DNA of 58,233 nt, the filler included, from Dugesia japonica (taxonomy: Eukaryota): NCBI GenBank assembly GCA_001938525.1. It is 4 parts of 4 records of this genome, joined end to end, with 100 filler letters (N's around TTAATTAATTAA, not from the genome) between each part and the next. Parts side by side here need not be neighbours in the genome. Positions count along the whole stretch, not along the records: positions 9,663 to 37,029 come from MQRL01630142.1; 3 more parts are not named here. One strand, given 5' to 3'. The position numbers and the translations under genes are program-made. The notes beneath the pieces were generated by a model, which was not told where the DNA came from, did no database searches, and worked only from the letters and a program-made list of their open reading frames with translations. Below, one piece after another: positions 8,513 to 43,360 of this stretch (position 1 is the stretch's first letter; each line of letters opens with the position of its first letter).

Positions 8513-8920
8513 TCAAGAAATCAATTTTTTGATTGATTTTATTTTCCAAATAGGTTTGAAATGCTTTTCTATTTTCACGTATACAGATATCTCCACAGAG
8601 ATGTTGCATTTGCCAGCATAGGCATCACCATCGTCTTCCGTCGAACTGATAAAGCAGACATCTTCTATTTTCATTAAGCCATTGATTTTAGCAAATAGAT
8701 TATTTAACATTTGTTGATCATTCGTTCTTATTTCAGAAACGAGCATCCCAAAAATGCATCTCTTTAGCTTGACTGGATCCTGAATCAAAACATCAATAGT
8801 AGTTGATGATGAATAAAATTGTACTTGAAATGTATATATTAATAATTTTCTATAGAAAATTATATCATATTTTTTTATGTTTTTGTGTTTTTCCGCATTT
8901 GATTTCAATAGTTGAAGCAT
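8513..8920 (-). CDS. Hypothetical protein, possible Polinton accessory ORF
   Basis: 135-codon open frame in very AT-rich DNA, co-oriented upstream of the ATPase; no recognised motif. Confidence 0.3.
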   Translation of the reverse strand: MLQLLKSNAEKHKNIKKYDIIFYRKLLIYTFQVQFYSSSTTIDVLIQDPVKLKRCIFGMLVSEIRTNDQQMLNNLFAKINGLMKIEDVCFISSTEDDGDAYAGKCNISVEISVYVKIEKHFKPIWKIKSIKKLIS

Positions 8921-9562
8921 TTTCTTTTATAACTTACATTTTTTTAAAAATGAATAAAAGTGACGATTTGTATAAACGTTTGGAAGAAATCTATGCAATT
9001 ATAATTATATTACAGAAAAACAAATGATTCTAGAACATTCTAATAAATATTTAAATTAATCTATTTAAAATGAAATATTTCTTGAAGGATAGTGGTTTGT
9101 TTATTACGGGATCATTGCGGAAATATTTGAAAGATCATGATCGGAATTTTTTTGGTAAAGAATTTTTAATTAATAATCTTATTAATAATGATATTTTTAG
9201 GTATTTTAAAAGAAGTACTAGAAGATGAAATTCTAGATTTAAAGGAAAAATCAAAATGTTATGTACAAAAAGAATATTGAGAGAATGTGAGCAAACACAC
9301 GAACTTAGATATGGACAAAATACTGTTANAGTTTTATGACGTGATTGATAATAGACGTGAATGTAGCTATTTCTGCTATGATGTATTCAAAACTATAATT
9401 GGAAAGGAAATGTCATATACAGAATCTGAAAAAGAAAAAATAAATTTTAGTTTGAAATTAGTTGCGTTTTTATTTGTTGTATATTAATTTAATTTTGTTA
9501 TTTATTTATTCTAATGTTTATATCGCGTAGATATGTTGATAAGTAAATTATTTGTTTCTCTT

Positions 9563-10495: not shown

Positions 10496-10889
10496 ATATC
10501 CTTCTCAAAAAGATTAATATTTTCTAACAATTCATGAATTTCGTAAATACGATATTAAGTAACGAAAAAATTATTGGATAGAATTACAAAATTTAAAGCC
10601 TTGATATACAAACTATGACCCGCCTGCTTTAATTTTTGGCCCTTGAAACGTCTAATAAAATACCCAANNNNNNNNNNNNNNNNNNNNNNNNNNNNNNNNN
10701 NNNNNNNNNNNNNNNNNATATCCTTCTCAAAAAGATTAATGTTTTCTAACAATTCATGAATTTCGTAAATACGATATTAAGTAACGAAAAAATTATTGGA
10801 TAGAATTACAAAATGTAAAGCCTTGATATACAAACTATGACCCGCCTGCTTTAATTTTTGGCCCTTGAAACGTCTAATAAAATACCCAA
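10496..10889. repeat. 172-bp direct duplication flanking an N gap, likely an assembly artefact
   Basis: 10496-10667 and 10718-10889 are identical apart from two substitutions I could see. Confidence 0.75.
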
Positions 10890-11290: not shown

Positions 11291-11565
11291 CTTGTCGGTT
11301 ATTGAAAAATCCCAATAAAGTGACTTAACAATATACACGACGGAGAAGGAAATCTCATAATCAGTCATAAACTTCATATAAAATCATTTCCTCAATTTCA
11401 ACTACGAGCTTTTTAACTGCAACANNNNNNNNNNNNNNNNNNNNNNNNNNNNNNNNNNNNNNNNNNNNNNNNNGACTTGCCCTCCAATTGATACTTGATA
11501 AAGTATTTAAAATATTCTCATTGCAATTATGAAACCACTAGGGCCCGTATTGTTATTTATTGTCA
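11291..11565 (-). pseudogene. 18S rRNA fragment (V3-V4 region)
   Basis: Minus strand reads TGACAATAAATAACAATACGGGCCC...CAATTGGAGGGCAAGTC-[49 N]-TGTTGCAGTTAAAAAGCTCGTAGTTG. Confidence 0.9.
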
Positions 11566-11959: not shown

Positions 11960-12560
11960 AACTACATTTATCACCTTTAATAATATTTCTTATTGTGAAG
12001 TGTGGAAATGTAGCTCGTTCCTAATGTTTTCCATGTTATATGTCGTTCTGATGAAATTTTATGTTGGTGTTAAAGCATTTGAAGATTTCACTTTCATTTT
12101 GTTTCAGATGTTCCTTATTTTTTGTTCGGATGGTTCTGCATGTTTCACTTATAAATGTTTCTTGGCAAATGGTGCATGTTATTTTATAAGTGACATTTTT
12201 CTTATTGCATATTGAATTTCTACCATCACAAAGGTTTCTGTAATTGGATGCACAAAGGTGATTGAGTTCTGAATATAACTCTTGGATTGTGTTTGAGTTT
12301 CGATTTTTTAATTATATTTTGCATAATTGAACTACATTTCTCATTGATAAAACGTAATTTAATTATTGTGTTTGTTTTTTGTTTGATTTTATTAAATTTT
12401 GTATTCGAGGATAAATTATAATTAGATATAATTTTATTTGAGTAGCTTTAATTTAGGAATTAATTATTTATCAACTTGAGGGAAATCAATTTCATTTCTT
12501 CATTTGAAGATAGTCTTTAAGCTCGAATTCGTCCACTCTTGGTTATATTGTTAAATTCTG
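11960..12560 (-). mobile_element. Penelope-like fragment (GIY-YIG endonuclease end)
   Basis: ITCTICQETFISETCRTIRTKNKEHLKQ; similar to the copies at 34650 and 52525. Confidence 0.8.
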
Positions 12561-13620
12561 GGGAGAGATAAACATTTGTTGACATAATATTATAATACGA
12601 CTAGTGTTACAAAAACTTGAGCAGCCGGCCAATTTGACTGTACGCTGTTCGAGTTACAGCATCGATACGAATTTTTTACTGAAATCGAATGGTTGATAAA
12701 ATATTGAAGAAATTTAGATATTTTAATAGTAGTTTTTTGAGTTTATTTTGATAGCAAAGATCTAATCCCAAGATATAATACCGAAAATCCCGATATTGGA
12801 TGTTCAAATCAAGAGGTAAAATAAAAATTTTGTTTGAGAAAATGAATTAAATTCTCAGTAACATGATTTTTGAGATTTAAATTAATTTTGTCATAAAAAA
12901 TCGAGAACCGGAGAAGTTTTGAAGAAGTTTGGCATTTTTTGACAAGTGGGAGAAGGATTGTGTCGAAGATAAATTGGCATCAACAATTTTTTTTAACGAT
13001 TAATGTAATGAATTAGTTAAAATATTGATAATTTATGGGGGAGGGGCTACCGTTGGTTGACAAGCGGGAAGTTAAAAGTGTCTGAAAATTGTTGACATAT
13101 TAAACGGACATCTCATAATAACTATTGAAAATAATTCGGTAAAGTAATGAAAAAATATTTCCTAAAAAATACAAAATTCTAATTAATAATCAAATTAAAA
13201 TATACAAAAAAATTAATTTTTTAATTAAAAGTTTTCAAATTTAAATCAGTGCTTAAAAGATTTGTTCTCTCCGAAAAATTAATTTAGTCGCATTTGGAAG
13301 AATCAAAAAAACTATTCATGTTTCCAAACTTTCCACAAATTAAACTTAATTAAATTAATTAATTAATTAATTAAGCTTAAATTTATGCATTTTATCTTTA
13401 GACAATTTTGAAATTCTTTTTTCAAAACTAAGCAATTTTATCCAAAATTTTAATTCGTATAGACAGGGATTTAATTTAATTTACTTTAAATTTGATGCAA
13501 AACGTCAGATAATAAGTGCAAGAGAAAAATTCTAACCAATTTGTTCATTAGAATTATATTATTTATTCTAGTTATTAATAATTTTTATCATAAAATAAAC
13601 ATTTCAAATAATGGTGGCAC

Positions 13621-14294
13621 CTGTAAATGAGGCCAAGCAGCTTCTAAAGTTGGTTCATCTTCTTCTGGGTCATACTCCGCTCCCATTGGATTACTTGCTG
13701 GTGGTAGAGTGCGAAATAGATTTGCTGCTAACATTTTCACAATTTCTGGGTAAAGAGGTTCTGTTAGAACTCCTTGATTACTATTTATATACTCGATCAA
13801 TTCGTTAAGAGTTGATCGCTTAATTTCTTTATCTTTGAGATCACTGAGAGGATCAATGGCAAAATCAAAAACAACTGAACATTGTTCAATTTTCTTCATA
13901 AATAATTCTTCTTTTTCCGATGGTGAAGTATCTTTTAATAATGGAAGCTTTTTCAATTCCCGTTTCTGAGATATATTGAACACTGAAGATGCTCTTCTTT
14001 CACGTTTAACAGCTCCACTGCCAGCAATTGTTCCTTCTGCTTGACGAGTTTTGATTAATTGGGTTTGTGGTGGATAAGTAGCTTTAAGAAATTTATGATA
14101 ATTAACAAAATAATTTAAATTACTTTCAACAGGTGCTACAACTTTCTTTTCCGCCTCTTCTTTACGCGGTGATGATTTAGAATTATTCTAACATAACAGT
14201 CAAAAACTTTTAAAACAACAGAAAAATTTTTACATTCATATTAAAAGCAAAAATAAATGAAATTTACTTTTTCTTTTTTGGATTTAAGTGGCAT
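13621..14294 (-). CDS. PPP2R5D: PP2A B56 regulatory subunit (gamma/delta type), 5' part; exons 14268-14294, 14124-14187, 13621-14081
   Basis: MPLKSKKEK...PPQTQLIK...[23 protein letters not shown]...[19 protein letters not shown], with GT-AG introns of 80 and 42 nt in frame. Later exons not found before the contig end. PPP2R5C versus PPP2R5D is not resolvable. Confidence 0.92.
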
Positions 14295-14639
14295 TTCAAA
14301 ATAAATTCATAAATAATCAGAATAACAATTTTTTATATTTAAACAAACTACATTAGACGATAAATGTTACTTCATTTAAAATGTTTTAAATTATTAAGTT
14401 ATACTATTAGAATGTATTCTCCATCATTTTCAATTTTTTGTAATAATTTTTACAGGTCCAGATTTTTATAATTGTGTATCAAATATAATTTAAACCACTT
14501 TTTCGCTTAATACTGTCGAAATTACATGAATTTTCAAATTCATTTAATTATTTAACACAATACTAAAATAATATATTAGTAATTTTATTCAAAATTACAA
14601 ATTTGATGTAATCTAAATAAATATGATTCTTTATTTGAT

Positions 14640-14730
14640 TCTAAATGTTAAAACTCCATATTTTTTTAATGAAAGGATTTACAAGTTGGTGGAACGCTGG
14701 CTGCATATTGTTATAAATAATGATATACAC
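14640..14730 (+). mobile_element. Mariner 3' remnant, continuing at 18912-19020 after the hAT insertion
   Basis: FFNERIYKLVERWLHIVINN matches the mariner C-terminus. TIR-like TTTTGTCAACTAATA near 19005-19019. Confidence 0.5.
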
Positions 14731-17700
14731 CAGGGTTCGCCAACACGTCGACCCAGGGTGACTGGTCGCCCGCGAAGGGTTTGAAAATACCCCGTCACTT
14801 AAAAGTTTCACAATTTAATTTTCCTTATATTAATGTTTAAAATCTTAATTTAACATTTTATTTTTACAATAATAGGGTATTTGTGCAACAATCCATAATG
14901 TATGCATTTATCACGATAAATAGTAAAAATTAATGGTATCGTGTAAACTGATTATAGTAGCTATGCATTGGCATATAAAATGACAATTGCAAAAAATGCG
15001 CAAAATAATTTATCAGNTAGTAGAATTGATGAAATAGAATAAGATATTAAATTTGAAAACAAGCTTGCTATTTACAAGACCGTTGTTAAAACATACCTTT
15101 TTATTTTTATTATTGATTTAGAAATAATTTACGTATGCTTTATTATTAGAATTATATTATTGTTNNNNNNNNNNNNNNNNNNNNNNNNNNNNNNNNNNNN
15201 NNNNNNNNNNNNNNAATTAAGCTGTTAAAATAAAATTTATTTTTTTAGATTTCAATTAAGGTGATAGTTTCAAACTTCAAACACTTGCTACCACGTTTTA
15301 ATACACTCGTGTTTATTTACAATAATACGTTTTTTATAATTTCTACAACGAAACATAGCTGGTATGCTATTGTTAAATTTTTTTTGAAATATAATGAATA
15401 TTTATGTTGGGGTTTTATCTAGGGCGTCGATTTTTTATAATTAAGTCTAGGGTGATTGGCCTAGTAAAACCCCGAAAAGAATTTAATCTGGTGTCTTCAA
15501 AAATCCAGATCTTCGAAATGGAGCCGTTGACTCGGAATTCGAGTATAGACTCGCACTCCTTTAGTTCGGGTTCGTCTTCCGTGACACTTGCTCGACTTAC
15601 GAGACCTACTTATTATTATTTTATAAATTTCCAGTTTATGGAGCGTTTTTGATCTTAATTAATTATGGTATTAATAGTTATGAGATTAATTATCATAAAA
15701 ATAAAAGAATTTATAAGCGAATAACATATTAGGGTTATTAAACTTAACTTTTTACAAATTAATATACAATAATCAATAGAACTAACATAGTCTGAATCCC
15801 GATACGGAGAAAGCATAACACATAGATTGTCTCTTCTTCGGTAGCCATTAACGACTCGAGGGGTCCTTCATAATTTTCCATCTTCAAGTCAGAAATCGTT
15901 GCACCACAAATTTAAATAGAACAATAATTACCGTAATAATTTAGATTTTCTGGTTGACTTCAGTAATTTCAATTGGCGAAGATTGACAATTCTGGTTGAT
16001 TTCACTAATTTTTACTAGTGAAGATTGATTTTTGATGAAAATACATCAGTATTTTGCCGGTTTTCTTCTACACCTTCGTTCATTTCATTGGGTAATATAC
16101 ATTCTTGGTGTTTTTATTGGTCGGTTTATTTTAATTCTGTCACATGATTCTTCTTATTAGTTGGAATTTTGGAATTCTAAAATTTCTGGAGTTTCATTGG
16201 TTAACCTTCAGATCCTTGTATCTTTTTTCGGAGTCTTGGTACGATTTTTTAACTCAAAATTTTGAACTCCCCGATATTTTCTTGTCTATAATTCTTTTAA
16301 CTGCTAATTTTAATTTGACAGAAAACCTTTATTTTTCTCACTTTGTCAAAGATTTAATTTTCTTCTTTAAAATAAATCATTTTAAATCATATGATTTATT
16401 TTATTTAATTAAATAAATTATTTATTTTATTTCTTTTAAAATATTAATTAGATGTTCGTTTTTTTCTGGTCTAAAATTGATTTAATTTCGAAGTATTCTT
16501 CCACTTATTAATTCATTTAATTTATTTTCTCTTTCTTCGATTAATATGCTTTCTTTAATTTTGCCTAATGAATTAGATTCTTGGCTGTTATTTATTATTT
16601 TCTTTCTTTTCATAGCTGCTTTTTTTACTACTTTTTTTCTTTGATCTTCTTATTTCTACGTTGTTTCGTGCTGTAATGCTAGACTCTTCTTATTATCTTA
16701 AAGATTTTAACTATCTAATCTGGTTTTCTCATCCATTATTTCTGTTTTCAACTGAATTATGTTTTTCTTGGGTCTGAATTCTTTGTTTTCTTTTCTTATG
16801 TCAATCTTTAGAATTTCAAGTCCACTTAACACCATTTTTATTTTCTGTACCATGTGTTTCACTCCAACATTTATACCCTTTATTTTAAAATGAGTAAACC
16901 AACTATCAACCACAAAAACGTAAAAACTTATAATTATCATAGTGAATAGGAAGAAAATTATTTTTTATCATGTTAAAAAATAAATGTTCCTGTTTTATTT
17001 GCAATACTGTAGTAGCTTTGACAAAGAAAGCAAACGTTGAAAGGCATTATCTTGCAGTTTATAAAAATTATGAACAAGATTATTCACGTGGTACGGCGTT
17101 AAGAAAGGCCAAAGTTCAACAACTGGAGGGAGAGTTAACTGCGCAGCAAGATAGTCTCTTAAAGAACAACACCAACTCAAAGAGTGCTACAACTGCATCA
17201 TTCAAAGTTACTGATACTTTTATCAAACATAATAAACCGTTTCAAGATAGAGAAATATGGTAAGAGGCTTTTATTTAAGCCGAGAAGTGTTGTTTCAAAA
17301 TTTTAAAAAATAAATCGGAAATAATGACATTCAATAAAAATTTGTCGTTATCGAGAAATACAGTTATGCGTAGAACAGAGGGAATCAGCCAAAACTTTGA
17401 AGATGTTTCATATAAAAACATTAATAAATGCGTGGTATTATCACTACAATTTGATGAATTATCAGACTTTATTGGCACTGCACAATTATGTGTTTTATTC
17501 GAATGGTATTGGAGTATATGTCGGATACAGAAGAACTATTAACTATTATTCCAATGCATGAACGCACACGAAGTCAGGATAACTTTGATTTATTTAAAAA
17601 TTATATTGCTCGCACAAATTTTCTAATCTACAAATTAGTATTAATAACCACGGAATGATCGTGGTTAATAACTCCTGCAATGATCGGTAATAAAAGTGGC

Positions 17701-18911
17701 TTTATTGATCTTTGTAAATGTGATGATAACATTCCAGATTTTATAGATTTTCATTGTATTATACATACTCAAGTCTTATGCTAAAAAGTATTGAAATTTG
17801 AACATGTTATGGATGTTGCATTTAAGATATTAAATTCAATAAGATCTAAAAGTTTGTCACCTTGTCAGTTTCGCGCCTTGTTGAGAAAATGTATTGACGA
17901 GAACAGTGAACTGTTATTACATACAAAAATAAGGTTGTTAAGCCGTGCTATATTCTTAACTAGATCTAGAGATCTTCTGCAACAAATATGCTTATATTTA
18001 GAATCTAAAATTGATTCAGTTTCTCATTTTAAAAAAATCAAAAATGGCTTCTTGATCTTGATTTTTCTGCGATGTTACTGTAAAATTACAACAATTGAAA
18101 TTGAAACTGCAAGGTAAAGGTAAAACAATAATAGATATGGTAAACATATTGAAGTCATTTAAACAAAAAATCGAATATTCTTGTAATGCAATTAAAACGT
18201 GTTGATTTAAAGCATTATAAAAATTTAGTTGATGAGTCTAAAAATAAAATGAATCTTACTTACAATTAATATGCTGATATCATTGCATTGCTTCTAAAAG
18301 AATTTGACAAAATATTTTTAACACTGAGTAAACTTGAAGATATTGCAAGTTTCTTGTCTTACCTATTTAATGGTGACGTCGATGTTGAAAACATAGCTCA
18401 GAAACTAAACACCTTTCTCAANTCTACAAATATAGCAGACTTGGGAGAAGAAATAATACATATAAAATATGACATAAATCTTAAGTCAATGGTTTTTAAT
18501 TCTTATTTTTGAAAACTGATGAATAAAGATAAATATCCAAATATTTGGATAGTTGTCTCACGTTTCAATGCTTTCTTTGGATCAAAATATTTATGTGAAT
18601 CTGCATTTTTATTTATAAATGCGATCAAAACAAAAGATAGATCGCAATTAACAGATAAACATTTGGAAGCGTGTCTGAGAATTGTGTTAAGTTTGTATGA
18701 TCCAAACTTTGAAAACAACTGCAGCATTTATTCAATGTCAAATGTCGTTTAATTAAATATACTTATTTTCAAAGTTTTGTAATTTATTTGTCAAAATATC
18801 TTTAAAAAATATCAGAAATCCTAAATTTTTCCCTTTATATTCTTGTTCATATTGCAGATCATATTTTACAGAAAAAGAAGCCCATATGAGATAAAAGTTT
18901 GGACACATCTG
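14731..18911 (+). mobile_element. Near full-length degenerate hAT (Buster/Charlie) transposon; transposase pseudogene ~16890-18752
   Basis: Ends CAGGGTTCGCCAAC ... GTTTGGACACATCTG; flanks ATATACAC/ATATAATA. Motifs: BED finger CFIC...ERHY, SLQFDE, FHCIIH, LLHTKIRLLSR, FGSKYLCESAF. Confidence 0.85.
15405..16869. mobile_element. 1465-bp TGTTGGGG...CTCCAACA insertion, solo-LTR-like
   Basis: Perfect 4-bp TSD TTTA. Left end similar to 42138 onward. Right end (reverse complement TGTTGGAGTGAAAC) similar to the starts at 48404 and 23931. Confidence 0.85.
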
Positions 18912-19201: not shown

Positions 19202-20411
19202 TTATAGATGTAATTCTTATTTGTAATAGTTGCTACATATTTGTTTTACTACATCACCAAATTTCAGCTGAACAGATCGTAATTTAAAAAAGTTACAGTA
19301 ATTTATTTAATCTTCTTCTATGTGTAAGATGTATTAAATTCTGCGTCAAAAACGAAATTTAACGTCCCGATACCTTGAAAATGCTACAGAAGTGATATGG
19401 CAATAATGCTTTATCAAAATCAACAACTGATGAATGGTATACGCGGTTTTTAGATGATCGTAAGATTGTTACAGATGATTCTAGATCTGGAAGATCATTA
19501 ACCTCGAAGAACGACGAAAATATCAAAGAATTAAAGTCATTGTTAATGGAAAATAGGAAATTGACTATTAGAGAGATTATTGAAGATACAGGAATATCAT
19601 TTGGAACAGTTCAAACCATTTTGCATTAGGATTTGGGATTGAAACGTGTTGCTGCAAGACTTGTTCCATGTGAATTGAACATTTTTCAAAATTTAGTCGT
19701 GTTGAAATTTTAAGGGCCTTACTCTCTAACGTTGATTCTGATGAAACATTTATAAAACGTATAATTTCTGGTGATAAAACGTGGGTGTGTGAGTATGAAA
19801 CTCAAACAAAACATAAATAAAGTCAATGGCAGTCTCTGAAAGAGCCAAAACCGAAAAAACCATGTCGTTTTCTGTCAAAAAAAGAAGGTCATGCTGACCG
19901 TTTTCATCGATTCCGATGGAGTTGTACACCATAAATTTATTCGGGAAGATCAAACAGTCAGCAAGGAGTATTATCTAGTTGTTATGAGACGATCGCGTGA
20001 AGCTGTTTGTGTGAAAAGAAAAGATTTGTGGAGAAACATTGCCCGGATTTTACACCATGACGATGCACTAGCTCACAATGCAATATTTATTTGAGATTTT
20101 TTGCAAACACTCAATACAAATACTATTTAAGAAGCTTCGAATTCATCAGGTAAGGGTGTTTGTAACTTCTTTCTATTTAATAGACTGAAAAAACCACTTC
20201 GAGAAAAACGTTTTGATACCACTGAAGCGATGTATTGTTGGTATACCAAAGAAGGAGTTCCAGAAGGCATTTGAAAATTGGATTACACGCTGCCATAAGT
20301 GCATTGAAGTTAATAGAGACTACTTCGAAGGTGACAATTAAAATTGTGTTGAATAAATAGTTTGTTTTATTTTAAATTGAGTTTGCCAGGTATATTTTGA
20401 TCATAGTAGTA
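19202..20411 (+). mobile_element. Mariner element, degenerate transposase ~19330-20340
   Basis: DDSRSGRS, ARLVPCEL (WVPHEL-like), ISGDKTW, LHHDDALAH, FFLFNRLKKPLR; terminus TTTTGATCATAGTAGTA. Confidence 0.9.
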
Positions 20412-20915: not shown

Positions 20916-21660
20916 TGTCAATAAATATTTATTAATTACAAAGAAATAAAGAATTTTAACCAATAGAAATTGATTAAAATTATTTTAGTTAATTATTTGG
21001 TTCTATTGGACAAATGTTATATTAAATATTTATAGTTGTTAATTGTGAATAAAAATATGTCTCAAATGAATAGTTGTGATTTTGAAAATAAATATTCTTT
21101 ATAAGATTTATTTAACATGGTGGCAGCGGTATATATCGATTCAATCACAGATATATTTTTACCAATTGCGTTCTTTAGAAGAGATGAAATTTAAAAATTC
21201 ATAAAGCGTTGTGAATTGGAGACTAAAAGTATTAACTAGATGAAACAACAGTAAAGATTACTTTCTTGTTTGTAAATTGAAACTTTACTGCGAAAATATG
21301 CAAAAACGTTGAAAAAGGTTTTAAGGGTGTCAGGCGCGTTTTATTTTAACATGTGACAAAGACAAAGAAGTTATCAAAGATCTTTAGAATTTGATTAGCT
21401 ACTGATGTGGAAATAAAGAGATTCAATTTTACTTTAAACATGTAAAGGGTTTGGAGAAAACGAATATTTACTAATAAAGATTTTACAGAGGAAAAATGGT
21501 TGATCAGATAACAAAAGAATTGAAAAAAGGTGACTTTGCAGAAACGATAGAGTATAGAAAAAATTGAAGAAACAATGACGTTGGCTGATCGAATAAATAA
21601 AGAAAGAGATCAAGTTGATGCAATTATAAGTAATCGAAAGTTACAAGTCAAAATTTATTT
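20916..21660 (+). mobile_element. Ty3/Gypsy 5' end: short LTR, tRNA-Leu-type primer-binding site (21118-21130), gag remnant
   Basis: ...TTTAACA followed directly by TGGTGGCAGCGGT. The LTR start at 20916 is tentative. Confidence 0.6.
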
Positions 21661-21855
21661 ACTGGACCATCTTCTTTCGTCATAGAAAAAGCTCCAACCT
21701 TTCTCTAAATGGAATTGATTGAACTTCAGAATGATTTCATTAAATAAGAAAAATATAAAGAAATTGGCGTGCCAGCTATTTATAGTTACTTAAACGAGAG
21801 CAAATATCCAGAACTAAAAAATTGCGGAAGAACCGCTGTGTTACTTCGGTTCAAA
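21660..21855 (+). mobile_element. hAT transposase C-terminal fragment
   Basis: MELIELQND...KYPELK...CYFGS. Confidence 0.65.
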
Positions 21856-21859
21856 CTCT

Positions 21860-23660
21860 TATGGTCTGTGCGAATAATAAATTTCTTTCCCAATAAATAA
21901 TGCTTTTATTTCTTCACAAAGTAATAAACCGTCATGATTTCTTTCCTGATGATACAATACATTTTTTGTGCCTTTGAAAATTTCTTAGATTTATAGAATA
22001 TTAATTTATCTTTGTTATTTTGAATTTGACTTAAAACTGCTCCCATTCCAAAAGTAGTGTTGCTAAAGATCATGTTTCAGACTTTCAAAAGATTCTTTAT
22101 GAAATTTTTCCCATGTTAAATCTACCTTTTTTCCGTTTTTCGTGATGTTCACATTTCTTAAAATATCTTCTAGAGGTATAAGAATTTTTTTATATCTCCA
22201 AATAAATCTTCTGTAATAATTGCAAAACCCTAGAAAGCTTGATAATTCTTCATTTTTAATAGGAATACTCCAATTTTTTACTGCATTAATTTTTTCTGGA
22301 TCAGTCGTCACTCCTTTGTTTGATATTATGTGACCAAAATATTTTACTGAAGCTTTAAAAAAAACATTTCATAGGACATAACTTAGCTCTCGACTGCCTT
22401 ATCTTCATTGTGTTCCTCTATGCTTTTCCTGAAAATCAAAATATCATCGAGATATATTAAGCATTTATCTCTGAGAACTAAATTCATTAATCTTTGAAAA
22501 GTTGCTGGTGCTCAACAAAGTCCAAAAAACTATGCGATTAAATCAATAGAGAAATTTACTTGTAGCAAAAGCTGTTTTTCTTCTGTCTTTGTCTACATTG
22601 TAATGACCACTAGATTAATCAAGTGCACTAGAAAATCTTGATCCCGCAAATAAATCGAATAACTGTTGATTATCTGGAATATGATGTATAGGTCTGTTAG
22701 TAACTGAGTTTAATTTTCTATAATCTATACATAGCCTTATGTCTTCAGATTTCTTTTAAACAAACACAATAGGCGAAGACCACGGACTTGAACTCTAACG
22801 CATGATTCCGTTTTTTTTAAAGCTCTTTGATCATCTCATCGATTTCACTCTCTAGATGAAGAAGAGCTCTTTTTAATGGCTTAGCAATAGTTTAAAATCA
22901 ATAACATCTATTACGTGATACATTATTCACAGCTACAACCCATATATTTGCTATCTTATCTTTATAAGGACTAAATACAACTTCCTTCGAACAAATATCT
23001 GCACTATCTGCAGTGAGTAGAATCTGCACTCACTAAAAGAGTTACTTCTTCTTTTTTCTCAAAATTGTAACTTTATTGTCTAATGTAATTCTTATTGTAC
23101 AAATTTGAGCCTTCTTCACACTTCTTTCACCATTATTTGGACGCTCGGATACAGTGCTCTTTAGTTTTCAGTTAACTCTCTTATTTTGGATATGAAAGGT
23201 ACTTTTGTTTCACTTACAGCTACACAGTCTAGTTTTGGTAAAATTGAAATGTTCATCTTTTTCAAATCTCGTATTCATATTATGACTTTTTGGGAATAAT
23301 TTATTTACAATAGTCATCCTAATTCTACTAGTTTTATTTCCTTTTATTTTATTTATTTAATTTTATTTCTTGTTTGATCTTTTGAACTGGATACTTTAAA
23401 AAATCTGTTTCATGGTTTCTTTCTAAATACTTTTTACGATTTTCTAGCTCAATTATTCATCGTTTAAAGATTTCCATTTCTTGCAATTTTAACGTCATTG
23501 CTAATAATTCGCAATTTATCATTATACCGAGTTTTATCTTCTTTTTAAAATGAATTTAAAAGCTTTTTCCCGAGTTTAAAATCAATAATATCTATTACGT
23601 GATACATTATTCACAGCTACAATCCATGTGCTTGGTTTCATAATTTCCGTAACCCTGGCT
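21860..23660 (-). mobile_element. Ty3/Gypsy pol remnant (RT-RNase H)
   Basis: [56 protein letters not shown]; many frameshifts. Confidence 0.9.
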
Positions 23661-23930
23661 GCCAAACGATTATAAACCCCTTTCGAAAATATTGATAAGA
23701 GAGTTTTNTCTCTATCAAATTTATGATAAATGGCATTTCCCGAATTACATCAACTCTGATGGCATTTAGATACACTAATTAGTTAATATTATTAAAACAC
23801 ATATCACACATTATTTACGTGACATAGGAATTCGGGAAATATTATGAATTGTGAAAGATAAAACTTATGTTTAAAGTTATACAATGTGATAATAATTTCT
23901 TGTAATTTATTATTTAAAAAATAATAAATT

Positions 23931-26900
23931 TGTTGGGCTGAAATAGTCTATTTAATGATATAAACCATTTGGAGTAAAACCGAGAAAAGAATTGAGAATT
24001 GGAAATGTTCGAGAAATGATATTTAAGTCAGAACGAAAAACGAATGAAATAGAATAACAATGAACATCATCAAATCATCAATGAATTACTTGGTAAATAA
24101 TAAAAAGAAATATTATTAAACGAACTTACAAATTGAAACCGAAATTAGAAAACGAGCAGTGATATAAGAATTCCGAATAAAACAGATGCTCATACAAAGA
24201 ATAAAGTTGTAATTAGAACATCGATGCTCTAAGAAATATTTATTAAAACCAATAAATAATTAATTAAAATGATTGTAAGAAAATGGTAATTCGGTAATAA
24301 TAAGAATAAATGCCACCAGACAAATCGACACTTAAAGATAAAAAAGTGAACATGCAGAAATGATTAATGTTAGTGGAATCAAATAAATTAAAGACGAACA
24401 AATTGTTAAAATAAAATGATAAAAGAAGAATTAAATAAAAGACGAATAAATACTAAAATAAAATGTCGAAGAAAAGTGAATAAATAATAATGCTCAAAAA
24501 AATAATATCAATTGAGTTAAAGCTCAGAAATCACACCGATAGTGGTCAGATATAAAAGAGTTTAAATTAAATAATGATTGATCGAAATGAAGGATTGAAA
24601 GAAATGTTAAATGGAAAAGAACATATATTATTATTTACAATTTATTTAATTGTTATACAAGTAGAAATATAAAGAAATAGTTATTATAATATTATAAAGT
24701 AATTAAGTTAAGAAAGTAGAATTAAAACTAAAGTATTATACTAAAAGATTTTAATAAAATTGAAACGAACAGTTAGAAAAGAGTATGAAATAAATTGCTA
24801 TCATTATTATAATGTCAAAATATTAATATTATTAAAATAATGTAGTTAGGAAAAATCAGATTATTATAATAACGTATTTAAATAATTTAAATGAAATATT
24901 ATTATCTTGTAATTATTAATTTCATTATTATTAATTAAATATTATTATTTGTAAAGAAGGAACCAGAATTTTGAGAAGAAAGTTATATGTAATGAAAAGT
25001 GATAAAAGTTAAACGAGAATTAAATATTCGTAGTAAATTATGTAAATTTATTATGGAAATATCGGTAATTATATCTGAAATACAGAGTTTCCAAAATTAT
25101 TATTTTAAGCGATAAATATTATTAAAAATATTATTATTTGATAAATATATTTAAATTTGATGAAAGAAATAGAGATTGTAATAAAAATTATATGAGAAGA
25201 AAGAGGAGTTAATTTTATGTAAAAATTAATTAAGAGTATTTGATAATTTATATTTATCCATGTAGTTATTTGTATTTATAAATCGTTGACAAGTTTCAAA
25301 AATTATTATTTTTAACCAAAAATATTATTTTTTGGTTCGTGCAGGTTTATTGCTGGTAAATTTAATGATGCCGTGCAGGTATAAACAAGTGTTTATCGTT
25401 GCAATTTTTTGTAGAAATTGCTTTTCTTTAAGTCAGGTGAGCACAGNNNNNNNNNNNNNNNNNAGCATTAACTACACAAATTATAGAATTCTTTATGTGT
25501 AGGGTGAGCACCGCAAATGTGAACAAATCTACAAAAATCTATGATGCCGAGTGAGCACCAGTAATCATATGGAATCACTAACAAAGCATGAACACCGATA
25601 TGAAAAAATAAGTATGACTAAATATAGTCATCTATATAGAATCTGCGAGTAAGCACCGCGCGATTCTGTAAATATTGAAGCCGACACCCACCCACCTTGT
25701 CAATATATGGTGACAGAAAATGAGTATAAAAGAAATAACAAATTTCACAAAAAACTTACTAATTTCTCTCTTAAAAATTATTATTGATACGCTTATTAAC
25801 TTATCGTTAAAAGTTATAAGTCGTTATATTATTTCAATTTTTCGAAAAGAAATTGTGACAAAGTAATTTTATTAAATTGTTATTATTTATAAAAATATAT
25901 AAACGTAACACTGAGATGGTGGTCCTCATTGACTAGCAACGCTGGCAATGATGATCATCAGGAGTCAGAGATCCGGTGTCGCGAGATCATCCACCAACGA
26001 GAGATTTATAAATATGATGATTATGAGAGATATATGGATATGATAGATGTTAGCAACCGTGAGAGATATGTGATTATGAGAATGGTTAATGATTTAATGA
26101 TTATGAAATATGTTAATGATTCTGAGAGGTAAATGATTACGAAATATGTTAACGACTATGAGCACTAAATGATTATGAGAGATTCTTTGATTATGATACA
26201 GAGATGTTGATGTTGAAAGAGATATATGTTCATGAGTAGAGGCTAATAAATAAGATAACTAAAAGAAATATTAAACGATAGAATGATCATGGTAATGAAG
26301 CTTGGGTTAACATTGTTATATCATTGATGTGTGGTGGTTGAACGTTGTCTAAGCACTAATATAGTTGTGACTACAATGATTGAATCCTCATACCTATTAC
26401 CAATGTATTTATTTATGAAAAATATGAATTTAGTTTTCTGATATCGTTGAGACTTATTATTTCCTTTGTCAAATTATTTTGATGTTGATATCGTTATGTA
26501 ATTATATTAATAATTTTTCATAAATTATTATTACCCTTAGATAATTGATATTTTGTTGCAGTCGACATCAGGAGGGAGATGAGTTTTCCAGCGAAAAAGT
26601 AGTTATGAATTTATGTAGGAAGATTCCAGAAGAAATCGATTGATTATAATATATGATTGAAGTATGACCTATTTAATTCATGAAGGTCCAACTTCTTCTA
26701 CCATGAAGAGTGGTCGATAGTCTTTTGAGGCAGGGTCGATTTGTATTATGAAACTTCAAATTAGAATCTAATTAGGTATTATGTTAATGTTACTTTGGAT
26801 AAATATTTGTTTTATAAATCTATATATAATTTAAACATGGGAATATGTTTCTTTATTTAGATGACTCAGATTATAACAGTGGCAGGAGCAGAAATATCAT

Positions 26901-27668
26901 TATCTGTTACAGAGTAGAGTTTTAATATCACGAGATGCAATGATACACCTGGCGATCTAGATCCATGGTGGGTCACCCAGGACCAGTTATGCGCTAAAAA
27001 TAAAGAAATCAGTTCATTGCGTGCGCCTTTAACACGACAAAAGGAGCGATTTACTCCTGTATGGCAGATATAAAAGACAAATGGTGTTCAATACAAAAGA
27101 AATTAAAGAGCGAAATCATGGAACTACAGCATAAAAACGCACAGCTCCGAGACAAAGTAATTAAACTGAAAGTACGCGATCTCGCTTTGTCACAAACTTG
27201 CCGCACCATGGCGGATATCATTAAGGCGTATGCGGACAGAGAAAGTGTATTGATAGCGACTGTTCGAACATTAACGCAGGCATTGAAACCAGTGTCAGAA
27301 GTAGCCAAAGAAAGTCATCGAATCGGATGAGTTACAAACATTGATTAGAATAAAAGTATGTACAGAATGTATTTTGAATTTTGACTATAACCATAAGTTA
27401 ATAATGATTGATATTGATTTATTTTAAAACAAGAACCGGATAAAATAGAATTAGAAAACACAAGACGGGATACAGCATAGTCTCACTGATTCCGGGAATG
27501 GGGGATCATGTTGCTAGAGAAAGCAATGCAAAATTATGTGGTTACTAAGTATCGTCCCCCAGACAAAAATTATATTTAAGAGAAGAAACAATTAAGACCG
27601 AGAGATTAATAATAAAAATCAAGAAAAAACAAAACTAAAACAACATCAAAAAGCCTAGTAACCCAACA
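23931..27668. mobile_element. 3738-bp TGTTGGGCTGAAA...ACCCAACA insertion, giant solo-LTR-like
   Basis: Perfect 4-bp TSD AATT (23927-23930 and 27669-27672); 7-bp terminal inverted repeat; no transposase or RT motif seen. Confidence 0.8.
27061..27330 (+). CDS. Orphan coiled-coil protein carried by the 3.7-kb element
   Basis: 89-aa ORF followed by AATAAA at 27349; appears homologous to 51121-51354. Confidence 0.55.
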   Translation: MADIKDKWCSIQKKLKSEIMELQHKNAQLRDKVIKLKVRDLALSQTCRTMADIIKAYADRESVLIATVRTLTQALKPVSEVAKESHRIG

Positions 27669-28152
27669 AATTGATAAGATTACATGTTGAATTTGTGACA
27701 GAAATAAGATGTATATCGGGTTTTTAGATTATTTAGAGTATGAAATCCTGTACTAAGTAGAATGTAGTAGGCAGAGAAAAACAAATAAGAAACCAATTTT
27801 TCAAACGAGCATAAATATTCTAGTAAACAAAATTGTGAGGCATACATACCTCAGGATTTCCTAAATTTGGATCTAACATAATAAATAAAATTATTTATCA
27901 AAGATTTATTAACTTCTATTAAATGTACAAGCTTTCTAAAAAATGTTACCAAATAAAATTTACAATTTAATAAAATTTAATACAATTACAAAAATTAAAA
28001 AATTCTAAGAATTTCTTACTATTGTTCTTCAACTCTTAATTACCCTAAAAATTACTATTTAAAATTAACACTGTTTTTATATCTTTTTTGGAATATTCAA
28101 ACAACAAAAATTTTCACTTTCATATATTCCTTACAAAAATAGTTGATTGGTA

Positions 28153-29181: not shown

Positions 29182-29625
29182 AATTTAGGTTACTTAGAAT
29201 TTATAGAAAATGAAAAGTTTAAATAATAGTATTGAAAAAATAGTTTTTATTCTAGAAATTTTTAACTAAATAAATTGTACTTGCGAAGCTTAATGTTTTA
29301 ATTTATAATTGTGTAAAAGATGTGGATTTGGTTAATAACCAATGACATAAAGCTATTGTTTTGAAGAGATTAATGAATGTCAATCTTTATCTTTAATGAT
29401 TTCAGTTTAGATTGAATAATATAATTGTGTAGAAAATTTATACCGGTAAATTAAAATGAGTGTCTGCTCATTGTTCATGTCAACAATTCTCAAGTAATTT
29501 ATAACTCTCCCCTTGTCAACAACTGTTCAATTTTCGGTGACTCATTAGCAATATTTTGTCAAATGTTTACCCTTCTCCCTCCCACAAATTATCTATATTT
29601 TAGCTATTCCCTTTTGTTAATGGGG

Positions 29626-29990
29626 CGTAGCGACGGGCGGGCAGGAACGTAATCATCACAAGCTAGTGACTTGCGTTTACTAGGAATTCCTTGCTCGTGT
29701 GAAATAATTACAATTCACAAACCATGTTACGACAGTTTCACAAGATTGCCCAACTATTTCTACATTGGAACTGCCATTGTAGCGCGCGTGCGGCCCCGGG
29801 CATCACAGACCTGTTATTATTGATTTTTTCATTTAGCTAGACGCTATTTATTCTTAGAAGTTATTCTTTACAAATTAGAATAAATACACTATTTAGCAAG
29901 TTAGATGCTCGTTCGTTATTGGAATTAACCTGACAAATCTCCACCAACTAAGAGCGGTCATGCGTTACCACCCGCCGAATCAAGATAGAG
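29626..29990 (-). pseudogene. Degenerate 18S rRNA 3' fragment
   Basis: The plus strand carries 18S reverse-complement landmarks GTAGCGACGGGCGG, ATTGTAGCGCGCGTGCGGCCC, GGGCATCACAGACCTGTTATT, CTCGTTCGTTATTGGAATTAACC and CCACCAACTAAGA. Confidence 0.9.
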
Positions 29991-30029
29991 TTGTTAAACT
30001 TCCCATTTTGTTGGTATAACTCATCTTGA

Positions 30030-30430
30030 AAATGAATGGCGCTGTATTGTATCGATATCTTGAGTTTACAAACAGTATCGTATAGGAGGGTGCCGTGTAT
30101 GGTAAGAGGCTACTGGAACATGCCCAAGTGTAGAGTTCACAAGTACAGTAGTAGCAATTATTCAAGTGAGATCCTTTAAGACTGAAGTGGAAAAGGGTTC
30201 CATCTTAGCAGTATTGGAACATGGGTTAGTCGGACCTAAGCGATTTGGTAATTCAGTTATCAGAAAGAGGTGATAGACATTAGCAATGGTGTTTATAATT
30301 GACTTTAGTCTTTCGAAGCTGAAGAAAATCAGTTTAATATTTCCGAACTTGAATATGGAAAATTTTGTTGTTTTAGCAACACATGCAATCTCAGAGACGN
30401 NNNNNNNNGTTTTGGGAAGAGTTTTCTTTG
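30030..30430 (+). pseudogene. Degenerate 28S rRNA fragment (around D7)
   Basis: TGAAAATGAATGGCGCT, GTAGTAGCAATTATTCAA, AAGACTGAAGTGGAAAAGGGTTCCAT, CATGGGTTAGTCGGACCTAAG, GGGAAGAGTTTTCTTT. Confidence 0.85.
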
Positions 30431-33050: not shown

Positions 33051-34649
33051 CACGTATACATAACTTCTAATAATCTCTCATCGGGGATTATTTCTTTTAA
33101 TAATTTAGAATCCGTGGGAGATTATTAGAAGGTATTTTAAAAATATATTAAGTAAATAAATTGACTTATTTAAACTTAAAAAAGGAAAATATACTAATAT
33201 TTTTAATAATTTTATACAATATTTTAGAATTTAACCATTTTAGTTTAGAATTTTGATATAATTAAAAAAAANTTTTTATTTAAATAAATATTTTAAGAGT
33301 AAGAATTATTTGTTTGGTTTCTAAAATTTTTTATTAAAAATGTAGGCGTGGGGGATTTTTAGAAGATTTAGAGTATATATTTTATTTCAAAATTTGCTTT
33401 AGTTGTTCCTACTAAAGTCAATCAACCAACATAATATTAAATTTAATTTTAACTTGTTATTTAATATAAATGTCATTTTCTGTTGGGTATTTTGAGTAAT
33501 GTTTTTTCAGAGTTTGCACGGTGCTTACATATTCACTGATTCCTTTGATCAATTATCAAGTGGGAGAATATTTAGAACTATGTTTTCTATATTTTTAGAA
33601 AGTTTATTGGTAAAAATTATGAAGGAATTCTGACGAATAAACGAAACTACGAGATCATTATTCCTAATTTATACCAAAATATTATTTAGTAGAGTTGCTT
33701 TTTATGTAATAAGACAACAGGTGACCTAGAAATCTTTTTGTTACCTTATAGAAGCCTCAATTGGTGCAAATTTGTAAACAAAAGTTTATGGCGGTGTAAT
33801 GAGGGGATTGAATGCGGAAAAATTCACAGTATTACAGCGAAGCCTCCCTATTCCGCCAAACTTCGGGAATTGCTTAAAATAAATATTTTTGGCGGTATAG
33901 AAGAGTACCGATATGGAGGGGGGCGGTATATAGGGGTAGTGGTATAGAGAGGGTTGACTGTATAATTAATTTAAGTTTAACATTTCACAGATTTTATATT
34001 TGTAAAATTTCATTAGTAAAATTGAATAAAACTATAAAATTGAGAAATAATTTATTATCCATAAAACATTACGAAGCTGTCAATATTGATGATCATTAAT
34101 TAAAATTTGTAACTTCATTAATTTCTGTCTACCTCGCCGTTAAAAATGTTTCATTAAACACTGGCAACTGAATTTATAATATCATTAATAATTATTATTT
34201 CATAAAAACTACAAACACGGTTTTTCAGTTTGTATTTATTTAATTTTTTTTTGAAATTTTATTTCATGAAGAATTTTTAATTATCTCGATAAAATATTAT
34301 CTTTTAATAACATGAATGAAACTTTTNNNNNNNNNNNNNNNNNNNNNNNNNNNNNNNNNNNNNNNNNNNNNNNNNNNNNNNNNNNNNNNNNNNNNNNNNA
34401 TCTTTTATTAATTTCACTACATAATAGTTTTTTCTTTATCAAACCAATTAAAAATATTTTGTATTTTAATTTCTTAATTACTATTTAAAAAATTCCATTT
34501 AATTGTGTAATTAAAATCGGTAAGATTATTAAAAAAATATCATTTTATTTAAAATTTTTTCAAAAAATAGACAATGTATAATTTTTAGAACAGATAATAT
34601 ATTCTTTGCTAAATGTGGAGTTGTTAAATATGAAGGAGAATACTTAATA

Positions 34650-35150
34650 TATTTCTTCAAATAAAAAATATAATAAAATCAAACCAAAAACAAATACAGT
34701 TATAAAATAACTTTTATTAACAACAAATGTAGCCAATCATGCAAAATATAATAAAATAATCCAAACTCAAGCATAATACAAGAATTACATTCAAAACGCA
34801 AGTACCTTTGGGCATNNNNNNNNNNNNNNNNNNNNNNNNNNNNNNNGGTCCCAAATGTATTTGTGATGGTAGAAATTTATACAATAAGAAAAACGTTACT
34901 TTTAAAATATCATTCACCATTTGTAAGGAGACATATATAGGAGAAACATGCAGAACTATTCGAACAAGAATCAAAGAACATCTCAAACAGAAAGAAAGTG
35001 AAGTTTTCAAACACAACACATACATAAAATTTCACCAGAATATCACATAACATGGAAAACACTGAGAACAGGCTACATTTCCGCACTTCACATGAAAATA
35101 CCCGAAGAATTATTAATTAAAGAAGATAATCCTAAAATGAATATAACTTA
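34650..35150 (+). mobile_element. Penelope-like fragment (GIY-YIG)
   Basis: CKETYIGETCRTIRTRIKEHLKQ. Confidence 0.85.
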
Positions 35151-37129: not shown

Positions 37130-38067
37130 AGGTGCATCAATTGAAAAATTACACAATCTTGAGGTATTGTATTATTGTTTATTCTTTCATATTACACTTA
37201 AAAAGCAATATTGCTAATCGGGGAAACTTTAAACTTTTGGTTAATTTAAACGAATTTTGCACTTTAAAATTTTGATTTAAATAAATTAACTCAATCCCAA
37301 CTTTAGCCCCTGCAACACCTTAGGTCAAAATGTTTTCAGTATAATTGATATAAGCAATTCGTCGTTGAATTTTATGAATAAGTGCGGTATTATTTCTAAG
37401 GAAAGAGCGCGCTTATTCTTAAAATATTTCCTGATAATCTCTATAAAAAGTTTAAACCAAAGTTATTTTTATATTTAAAAGCTAAATAAGGAAAGGCGAT
37501 TCACCACCGGTATTAAATGAACTGACAAAAAGGATTTACCTACATGCAAAGTCTAAATCGAATAAAGATATCTTGTTAACTCCTACAATTAACAAAATTG
37601 GTGTTCAGTTTGTGTAATTAATCGCTATTGATTAATGATGTTATTCGTTCTGAAGATCAACGATTCTATAGGAGCAATTTGAATCAGAATTATCCCAAAA
37701 AGACGCTTCAAAATAAAGAAAAATTGAATGACTGCTTTGTTTGGTACGTAAAACGATTACTCTACATGAAAATTCTGTGGAAAAGATAAAAGAAATCTAA
37801 AAAGCGAGTGAAACTACAAACTAACCCTCTGAATGATTGAAACTGAAGAAGATCAAATTGTAACCGAACTAACTAACCAATCAACATGCAAAACAAAACA
37901 TACAAAATAATATTAATAACAATATTAATACTGATGATATCGATTATTCATAAATAATGAAGACCGGATCGGCGCAACAAAGAAATCATCGAAAAATGTA
38001 CAAGAATATAAATGATAATAATAATAATAATTAATAATAATAATATATTATCAGTTTATTTATTAAT

Positions 38068-41591
<3,524 letters not shown>

Positions 41592-42137
41592 TAATTATAA
41601 TTTAAATATTTCAAAGAAACTATAACGATTAAATACAGTAAAACAAACTTTACACTTTAAATTTCATTATTTATTAAATTGAAATTAAAAAACATTATTC
41701 TTCCAGAAAAGTTATCGAAAATTAAAAGTCATTAAGATTTATTAAAATAAAAAATCACAAAGATTTTTAATAATTATATTTTATAAGTCAAAACAATATT
41801 AATAAAACAACGACAGTCTTACTGTTGTGAATAATTTATCAAATTTCGTGCGTTGGATAATAAAAGGAAGCTTTCGTTACATTTACAAAATTTATTAATT
41901 ATGTTTTTTTCAAAATCTTAGTTTGGGAAACGTTGTGACGTTAATTTAGTCAAAAATTAAAATCATTTTGATGAATGCCTCCGTCGGTGGTGGCCAACTG
42001 TTCGTAAATTTATGGGAAATACTTAAAACTATGAACTGATATAACTTGTTCTGAAGTTTCCATAAAAACATAAATATCTTCAAAACAAAAAGTTAAATTT
42101 TAAAAGAAATTATTAAAACATAACTATATTTTAGTAA

Positions 42138-42300
42138 TGTTGGGATTTTATATAGGTTGGTTGGTTTTTTAATNAAGTCAACTGTGGTCGGCTTAGTAAA
42201 ACCCTGCTAAAAATTTAATCTGGTGTCCCCAAAAATCCAGATCTTCAGAATGAAGCGGATGACTCGTAGCCCGTTTTTGAGTACATACTCAGTTAAGACT
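42138..42300. mobile_element. End of the TGTTGGG element family
   Basis: Similar to 15405-15560 (TGTTGGG.TTTTAT.TAGG...TAGTAAAACCC...AATTTAATCTGGTGTC..CAAAAATCCAGATCTTC). Other end not found. Confidence 0.75.
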
Positions 42301-42639
42301 GCGCTCTACTCGTCTAGAGCAAGGTATATGTACACCAGGAATGGAGGATATACTGAACCGAGATATAATAGGTTACCAGAGCACCTACGGTCAAGGAGTG
42401 CTGGGCACGTTTCAAAAGCCCCGATCGGTATGATCCACTCTTATGCATGTCATGTAGCAGGTGCAACTGGGTGTCTTGACTATCCCTTCACCAGAAACGG
42501 TTTTTACTTGATTGTAATTTCCGAAAGCGCCTCGTCACGCAAAAGCAATTCGCTTTGGTAAACTGTGAGAAGCACCTAGCCTGGTCTCATGACAAATTTT
42601 TTTGCTGGTTTGTCCTAACATACTTGCGCATAATATGAT

Positions 42640-43360
42640 TCAGATATTGAAGTGTTTTTAAGATAATTCAAACGTGCAAAATAATAGATTCAAATGATAA
42701 AAGGATTTCACAGTGTTAAAATTTGGATAGCGCAGTATGATTTTCAGATATGAAAAATGATTTCGAGTTTAATTGTTATAGTTAGGTGTTCAGATATGAA
42801 AAAAGATTTTGAGTTTACTTGTTATAGTTAATTGTTCAGATATGAAAAAAAGAGTTCAAGTTTAATTGCTATAGTTGATTGTTCAGATTTGAAAAAAGAT
42901 TTCGAGTTTAATTGTCATAGTTAATGATGCAGATACGAAAAAGGATATCATGATTAGTTGCCATAGTTAAAGTCATGCATAATTGTTCAGAGATAGAAGA
43001 GAATTGAAGTTTAATTGTTTAAAAAAAAGGATTTTTAGTAGTTAAATTCAGAAATAAGTACTCAGATATAAAAAGGATTTAGGTTCAATTGTTTTAATAA
43101 AAAAGGATTTTTCATGGTTAATTTCACGCATAATTGTTCAGATATAGAAAAGGATTTAAGTTTAATGGTTCTTACGAAAAGTATTGTCTCATAGTTAATT
43201 TTACGCATAATGGTTACAAAATAAAAAGGATTCCACGCTTAAAAGCTTTTATAAGAAAGGGATTTTCACGTTTAATTATTCAAAAATTAAAAGCTTAAAT
43301 TCTTTTCATAAGAAGTGAATTTCATAGTTGATTCCGCACATAGCTGTTCAAAGATAAAAT
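42640..43360. repeat. Tandem arrays (~46-bp then ~70-bp units) sharing CAGATAT(G/A)AAAA...GTTTAATTG...ATAGTT
   Basis: Seen directly. Confidence 0.8.

Follow-up and report, generated by a model that had tools for sequence, protein, structure and literature searches.

What are the two enzyme-free insertions of about 3.7 kb that interrupt a repeat-rich stretch of the genome of the planarian Dugesia japonica (assembly GCA_001938525.1), and how did they arise? The stretch, called the window below, has 58,233 nt and consists of four contigs, 1-9562, 9663-37029, 37130-47918 (contig 3) and 48019-58233, with N44-TTAATTAATTAA-N44 linkers between them. Its GC content is about 28%, and profile and protein searches of the window identified eukaryotic host exons (PSMC5/Rpt6, 38068-41268; PP2A B56, 13588-14187) amid many decayed transposons. 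The two insertions, e1 (23931-27668) and e2 (48404-52126), and a third, shorter one, e3 (15405-16869, minus strand), constitute a family that is defined by its ends and not by size. We consider it reasonably probable that they are solo long terminal repeats (LTRs) of three diverged large Ty3/Gypsy families, with accessory open reading frames (ORFs) in the long U3 (unique 3') region.

The initial annotation described e1 and e2 as integrase-type insertions, and their TG..CA ends and 4-bp duplications agree well with that; the coordinates, ends and 4-bp flanks were re-read in the sequence and are as claimed, and the elements, separated by linkers, lie on different contigs. The boundaries of e1 read AATT/TGTTGGGCTGAAA...AACCCAACA/AATT; an empty-site control for e1 being absent within the window, the exact duplication is its boundary support. 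The e1 length of 3,738 bp includes a 17-N gap at 25447-25463, hence the 15-bp difference from e2 (3,723 bp) is approximate. The boundaries of e2 read TATG/TGTTGGGGTGAAA...CTCCAACA/TTTG. As a chance model we used 200 order-3 Markov copies of the four contigs, and, with one mismatch tolerated in the duplication, six end pairs are observed in the window compared to a Markov mean of 1.1, so that the imperfect duplication of e2 is weak by itself. Independent support comes from the surrounding 31-bp minisatellite, which e2 splits exactly at its ends, the array stopping at 48403 and restarting at 52127. The array scores 144 to the left of e2, where shuffles reach at most 76, and 88 to the right (at most 62); immediately within the element the scores drop to 14 and 20, below the shuffle maximum of 24. 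Moreover, the left TATG copy joined to the sequence past the right copy gives the array's own repeat, seen at 48286, which indicates that the original target was TATG and that the right copy has one change.

The third member, e3, was found by scanning all end pairs in the window. Its start on the minus strand equals the e2 start at 14 of 15 nt, and a matrix derived solely from e1 and e2, which makes the test unbiased, scores the e3 end (16869, minus strand) at 19.7, with 11.9 for the next-best window site. The 5' end motif is common to all three elements, the start having the form TGTTGG-TGAAA; the 13-nt start motif, with one position relaxed once e3 was known, occurs three times, compared to a Markov mean of 0.005 and a maximum of one in the 200 copies. 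Pairs TGTTGG..CCAACA located 0.5-6 kb apart and flanked by an exact 4-bp duplication are observed three times versus a mean of 0.145, and 2% of Markov copies reach two. Two of these three pairs use one right end (16869); one of the candidates, 12062-16869, was rejected, as 12062 falls inside a dispersed repeat. Other TGTTGGG sites (5953, 20557, 30479, 33481, and 45892) were rejected as well, the end motif not being present there. An empty-site control for e3 is absent within the window. As e3 has only 1,465 bp, 3.7 kb is not a defining family size: from the ~3.7-kb family of the initial annotation the family is retained, and the size as its defining trait is dropped. Two related hAT/SPIN-like transposase remnants (4342-5205, minus strand, and 16946-18750, plus strand; zf-C2H2_12 E 0.001, mutual tblastn matches) are present in the window, and e3 sits just before the latter.

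The terminal inverted match comprises 8 of the first 9 nt in each element, and past it the ends are unlike, no terminal direct or long inverted repeat being found: inverted alignment of the first and last 700 bp is no better than in shuffles, and the direct-repeat scores are 30, 30, and 25 versus shuffle maxima of 38, 29, and 37, the e2 value corresponding to a 27-nt non-terminal match. Unlike ends lacking terminal repeats are what is expected of a single LTR. No primer-binding site (PBS) or polypurine tract (PPT) was found next to the element flanks, where the target copies abut both ends. The absence of internal DNA identity between e1 and e2, claimed earlier, also holds: blastn yields just four matches of 19-32 nt, all AT-rich, and tblastx none under E 0.3. 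In the GC profile, e1 has an A-rich head of about 1.4 kb followed by GC-richer islands, and e2 similarly contains GC-richer islands separated by AT-rich spacers. CpG observed/expected ratios are 1.21 in e1, 1.14 in e3, and 0.99 in e2, and 0.70-0.81 in three other stretches.

For the analysis of the coding content we used 57 stop-to-stop frames of at least 40 codons (24 in e1 and 33 in e2), 19 of which were scanned against Pfam at E up to 1, and the other 38, one of them interrupted by the N gap, at E up to 0.01. None of the 57 passes the Pfam cut-off, and the reverse transcriptase (RT) and RNase H frames of the window itself have no match to e1 or e2; the earlier statement that no transposition enzyme is contained in these elements is thus upheld. 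No match was obtained for e1 among phages, or for e2 among plasmids.

The connection with retroelements comes from e3 and contig 3. The 3'-terminal 131 nt of e3 are 79% identical to 42138-42266, the homology beginning precisely at the terminal TG. Downstream of this copy is a decayed Gypsy-type polyprotein with many stops and frame changes, in which CCHC knuckles are followed by an aspartic protease, coiled-coil-like stretches, and further knuckles (zf-CCHC E 1e-8; RVP E 4e-4, just above the cut-off; six knuckle-pattern matches). Immediately after the gag-protease frame, at the place expected for a 3' untranslated region or a 3' LTR, there is a block of about 315 nt colinear with e3 (213 identities in 289 aligned bases; score 168, against at most 83 in shuffles), and, as the two copies have common stops in all three frames, the block was non-coding. 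Relative to the contig-3 element, e3 is mosaic, with one block in sense, and the end and a 29-nt piece in antisense. This homology to 42138-47918 ties the family, indirectly, to Ty3/Gypsy retroelements. A nested insertion, an assembly error, or inverted ends of the gag-protease element could each account for the opposite sense of the 42138 copy. The contig-3 element (42138-47918) also has a second zinc-knuckle cluster after the protease, and tandem arrays of 46 and 76 bp at 42743-43232, before gag.

Solo LTRs form by recombination, and 4-bp target duplications are characteristic of Gypsy elements. We infer that a Gypsy integrase inserted each full element, which would account for the TG..CA ends and the 4-bp staggered cut, and that LTR-LTR recombination then removed gag-pol, leaving one LTR between the original target copies. 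Counted from the TGTTGG-TGAAA end, each LTR would consist of a variable U3, 1.2-3.5 kb long, followed by a short R-U5 part of about 200 nt with conserved signals. Indeed, conserved signals are concentrated in the last 130-250 nt of the elements. Both e2 and e3 contain a TATA-like 13-mer followed by a 25-mer with an ATTAAA-type hexamer; their distances to the 3' end are 246 and 175 nt in e2, and 222 and 169 nt in e3. Neither motif is present elsewhere in the window, and both are candidate U3/R/U5 landmarks. Alignment of the e2 and e3 tails scores 47, the maximum in 100 shuffles being 40.

The initial annotation considered the elements to be gene-carrying, and e2 ORF1 bears this out. Among 1.84 billion representatives it has two matches. 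One of them is P0001, an unnamed ENA record of 94 aa. Its identity to ORF1 is 44% over residues 1-74 (E 3e-11) and the start Met is the same, which indicates that ORF1 is a real gene of an undescribed family. The other, P0002, is a cockroach protein, repetitive and rich in cysteine, and was dropped, as the match covers 31 residues. A separate protein search for ORF1 gave 0 of 5 candidates, a GTDB scan with the two-sequence alignment confirmed 0 of 32 pattern matches, and AlphaFold2 run on the same alignment yielded a mean pLDDT (predicted local distance difference test) of 40.7, that is, the fold is not predictable. In e1, the ORF at 27004-27330 has Leu or Met at six successive heptad positions, as in a leucine zipper, and, by inspection, no basic region; its match to bZIP_2 (E 0.006) is below the cut-off, and no homologues were found (0 of 1 candidates in the protein search, best E 0.26 in the PDB sequence search). 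The ESM Atlas gave only leads of 0.87-0.89 for this ORF, and no match for e2 ORF1. The e2 ORF2 remnant weakly resembles the e1 ORF with a score of 48, reached by 0.3% of 2,000 shuffles; among 2,580 tiles it is the top non-self one by two points only (next 46). For ORF3, with no match in Pfam or PDB, the composition (basic, then helical, then an acidic-aromatic tail) suggests a small regulator. The islands of e2 at 49055-50018, including the hydrophobic frame 49725-50018, pass no family cut-off, and nine proteins searched against PHROGs gave a best E of 0.01. Thus, as judged from sequence, e1 and e2 carry small predicted genes, at least one of the ORFs being real. Splicing and expression of these ORFs are suggested by the signals around them: all three plus-strand acceptor-like sites of e1 are at AT-to-GC steps, and the four copies of an 8-mer in e1 may act as splice donors. 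Expression of the accessory ORFs would probably involve splicing or local promoters; for comparison, sag of mouse mammary tumor virus (MMTV) is expressed from U3.

Features of the three elements and of the contig-3 element related to them (positions in the window)
Feature	Position	Strand	Basis
e1, probable solo LTR	23931-27668	+	ends, exact AATT duplication, GC profile
e1 target-site copies AATT	23927-23930 (left), 27669-27672 (right)	+	sequence inspection
Splice-donor-like 8-mer GTGAGCAC/GTAAGCAC, four copies in e1	25437-25656	+	4 of 6 window matches are here
e1 coding island	26861-27330	+	acceptor-like site 26860, broken upstream part, 108-codon frame 27004-27330, AATAAA 19 nt past stop
e2, probable solo LTR within 31-bp minisatellite	48404-52126	+	ends, near-exact duplication, array continuity
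Host 31-bp minisatellite	48020-48403 left of e2; resumes 52127 to ~52270		repeat scan, array scoring
e2 coding-like islands, strand uncertain	49055-50018	49214-49555 minus; 49181-49417, 49725-50018 plus	ORFs, codon-position bias
e2 ORF1, intact, 135 aa from Met	50403-50810	+	homologue P0001; AATAAA 45 nt past stop
e2 ORF2 remnant, 67 codons	51151-51354	+	weak likeness to e1 ORF end; AATAAA 26 nt past stop
e2 ORF3, broken near start	51518-51879	+	acceptor-like site 51517; 105-codon frame 51562-51879
Two e2/e3 motifs (TATA-like 13-mer; 25-mer with ATTAAA-type hexamer)	51881-51976 (in e2)	+	motif search
e3 (third member; 1,465 bp), with TTTA duplicated exactly and lacking a long ORF	15405-16869	-	end-pair scan, end matrix
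Copy of e3 3'-terminal segment, upstream of gag, opposite sense	42138-42290	-	79% over 131 nt, E 9e-27
Decayed Gypsy-type polyprotein, ~1,300-1,400 codons	43350-47570	+	profile and pattern matches
Non-coding block colinear with e3 bases 558-874 (from 16869 downward), sense as gag, reaches contig end	47587-47895	+	e3 alignment, common stops

The elements resemble Ty3/Gypsy solo LTRs in having TGTNR-type ends with a short inverted match, no enzymes, and no adjacent PBS or PPT, and in the 4-bp duplication that abuts both ends and differs per insertion (AATT and TTTA duplicated exactly, and TATG, whose duplication has one change and is backed by the minisatellite). They differ from typical ones in that the interior of e1 and e2 holds several small ORFs; besides, typical animal Gypsy LTRs have a few hundred bp, far below 3.7 kb. 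LARD and TRIM elements have two direct LTRs with PBS and PPT inside, whereas e1-e3 have no terminal direct repeats. Polinton/Maverick elements, with long terminal inverted repeats (TIRs), 6-bp duplications, polB, and integrase, are also unlike our elements, where the duplications are of 4 bp and neither long TIRs nor polB or integrase are observed. By description, they can be compared with Burro/GYPSM1 of dugesiid planarians, with its implied multi-kb LTRs, multi-knuckle Gag, and accessory ORFs. According to PMC6431247, Burro internal regions reach 25 kb, the elements exceeding 30 kb with LTRs and having accessory ORFs; Burro/GYPSM1 Gag has several CCHC knuckles, and decayed fragments are present in some species; and in the Burro polyprotein of about 5,000 aa an extended region of additional domains separates Gag from the protease, which is followed by RT, RNase H, and integrase. 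In the contig-3 element, by contrast, the protease comes immediately after the first knuckles, and no pol is present before the end of the frame at about 47570. MATH, BIR, BCL2, ankyrin, and env gave no match in the scanned segments. The planarian repeat probes GLT and GLT2, as given in Table S1 of PMC8532177, on their other strand combine, by eye, an AT-rich spacer with a GC-richer short frame, as e1 and e2 do. The GLT2 frame looks coiled-coil, and in one heptad stretch 8 of 15 residues match the e1 ORF, again by eye; however, a designed coiled-coil peptide matches the same stretch about equally, and hence the GLT2 likeness is only a lead. An analogy of working, with no sequence relationship claimed, is provided by MMTV, whose long LTR has an ORF in U3, sag being wholly within it as stated in PMC3621094; MMTV differs in being a vertebrate betaretrovirus with a single ORF.

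Several observations weigh against the solo-LTR interpretation. No member is seen in the window as paired LTRs or with a PBS or PPT, and no RT or integrase was found in contig 3, where the segment 45952-46554, compared with longer proteins, has 0 relatives of 719. If taken as the 5' LTR of the gag element, the terminal copy at 42138 is in the wrong orientation, and there is no PBS next to it; nor is the first 560 nt of e3 matched by the sequence preceding 47587 (score 65, with up to 94 in shuffles). The link of e1 to gag-protease is transitive and thin, consisting of the 13-nt end motif shared with e3 and the weak ORF match to e2; e1 has a loose form of one tail motif only, its last 100 nt being A-rich, and stricter scoring leaves the e2-e3 tail match tied with an AT-rich tile. 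As regards the expression signals, acceptor-like sites are not enriched (three on the plus and nine on the minus strand in e1, 10 and 11 in e2), and AATAAA is present within 45 nt after 3 of 7 stops examined, with a background of 3.3 per kb.

Of the two possibilities named in the initial annotation, a solo LTR of a giant retroelement and a non-autonomous cassette, the former is favored here, and the latter is retained as a rather unlikely one. Complete cassettes of 1.5-3.7 kb that have never been LTRs, with two different short att-like ends, small cargo genes, and a Gypsy- or Ginger-type integrase acting in trans, would fit three members of two sizes with common end motifs and dissimilar interiors, and e2 does look like a row of individual small genes separated by AT-rich spacers. 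Ginger elements have TGTNR ends, 4-bp duplications (Ginger2 preferring AT-rich targets), lengths of 2.6-7 kb, and non-autonomous copies, according to PMC2836005. The ends and the 4-bp AT-rich targets of our elements are like those of Ginger2/Tdd, but these features are common in Gypsy as well, and thus are not diagnostic. Moreover, Ginger TIRs are 40-270 bp long, while here just 8 of 9 nt match: the Ginger1 TIRs of this length are lacking and the targets are AATT, TATG, and TTTA instead of CCGG/CCGT, and neither the TIRs of about 50-180 bp nor the DDE transposase of Ginger2/Tdd is observed. In the window, a gag-protease element is tied to these ends and no transposase is, and signals conserved near a single end suit an LTR better. 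It is improbable, in our estimate, that the elements are internally deleted or rearranged large Gypsy derivatives that kept the outer ends with a mosaic 3' accessory region between them, so that the ORFs would be internal and not LTR genes. The mosaic relation of e3 to the contig-3 element is consistent with this, and Burro-like accessory ORFs lie outside the polyprotein, according to PMC6431247; however, e1 and e2 contain no traces of a second LTR, PBS, PPT, gag, or pol, and two independent deletions both leaving about 3.7 kb would be a coincidence.

The contig-3 gag-protease element might also be bounded by inverted repeats of about 150 bp and not by direct LTRs, with e1-e3 as its modules, making it an intermediate between Gypsy and Ginger. 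The 42138 copy is the reverse complement of the end that would be expected past 47918 if the e3 colinearity goes on, its homology of about 130-150 nt is of the Ginger TIR size, and PMC2836005 proposes that Ginger1 TIRs derived from oppositely oriented LTRs. Still, this is a single truncated locus in a fragmented assembly, with the right end outside the window, where a nested insertion or misassembly would look alike, and e1-e3 themselves have unlike ends; we regard this possibility as quite improbable. Least of all do we expect chance pairing of motifs in AT-rich, repeat-rich DNA. The mismatched duplication of e2, pairs with at most one mismatch arising about once per simulated window, and the lack of an independent empty-site check for e1 speak in its favor, but the end matrix recovers e3 with its exact duplication, the minisatellite resumes past e2, and the 42138 homology begins at the terminal TG, so that chance is largely refuted for e2 and e3 and very improbable overall.

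The insertion family is real. It probably represents solo LTRs of large Gypsy elements, a known and ordinary class, and is unusual in that its members seem to bear genes. Solo LTRs are commonly viewed as non-coding promoter relics. We found no description of ORF-bearing LTRs of this sort in the literature searched, primary Burro papers and Repbase being outside the search, and do not claim novelty. If these are indeed multi-kb LTRs with several small genes, every recombination event would leave a gene cassette, and LTR-borne ORFs may be overlooked or taken for orphan genes of the host. An anti-apoptotic region encoded by Burro1 is reported, second-hand in PMC13465017, to support planarian stem cells, and accessory genes located in LTRs might be the source of further effects of transposons on the host. 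If, as we think unlikely, the units are self-contained integrase-mobilized cassettes, or modules of a gag-protease element with inverted repeats of about 150 bp, intermediate between Gypsy and Ginger, they would spread small regulators that belong to no family, namely a leucine zipper lacking a basic region and a basic-helical-acidic protein, across an animal genome.

Other mobile elements are present in the vicinity. Two small decayed Gypsy pol regions with RT and RNase H, the second also having an integrase zinc finger, are located at 21790-22755 (minus strand) and 55694-57500 (plus strand). e1 is about 1.2 kb upstream of the first one; e1 as its 5' LTR was rejected, as the target copies flank e1 on both sides and there is no PBS. 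A PBS-like 12-mer at 25708 in e1 was also rejected: a scan with 12 PBS motifs gives 13 matches window-wide at equal stringency. At 21111-21130 (plus strand), an LTR-end-like AACA is directly followed by a PBS-like 12-mer of the tRNA-Leu type, and then by a decayed gag-like frame. A scan of the window found no tRNA genes. A decayed mariner-like transposase is recognized by eye at 19300-20400 (plus strand), and a weak match to DNA polymerase B2 at 3389-3754 (minus strand; E 5e-4, below the cut-off) is possibly a Polinton fragment. The PSMC5/Rpt6 exon at 38068-38937 (minus strand, about 280 codons) has GC content at third codon positions of 0.44, and the B56 exon, 0.18; the PSMC5/Rpt6 exon reaches 577 bits against the entries of one 26S group, compared to 524 and 508 bits for the groups that come next.

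A near-exact duplication of 172 nt flanks a 50-N gap at 10496-10889, and is probably an assembly artefact. Decayed ribosomal DNA is observed at 29560-30400 and about 11390-11425; the 18S match at 29799-30016 is the sole Rfam find, outside the elements, and the neighboring 28S-like and second 18S-like stretches are recognized by eye only. Finally, the dispersed repeat mentioned above is present in four copies, 1729-2006, 11994-12546, 34641-35092, and 52530-53174, that are 74-78% identical, and its frame resembles a Penelope GIY-YIG endonuclease.

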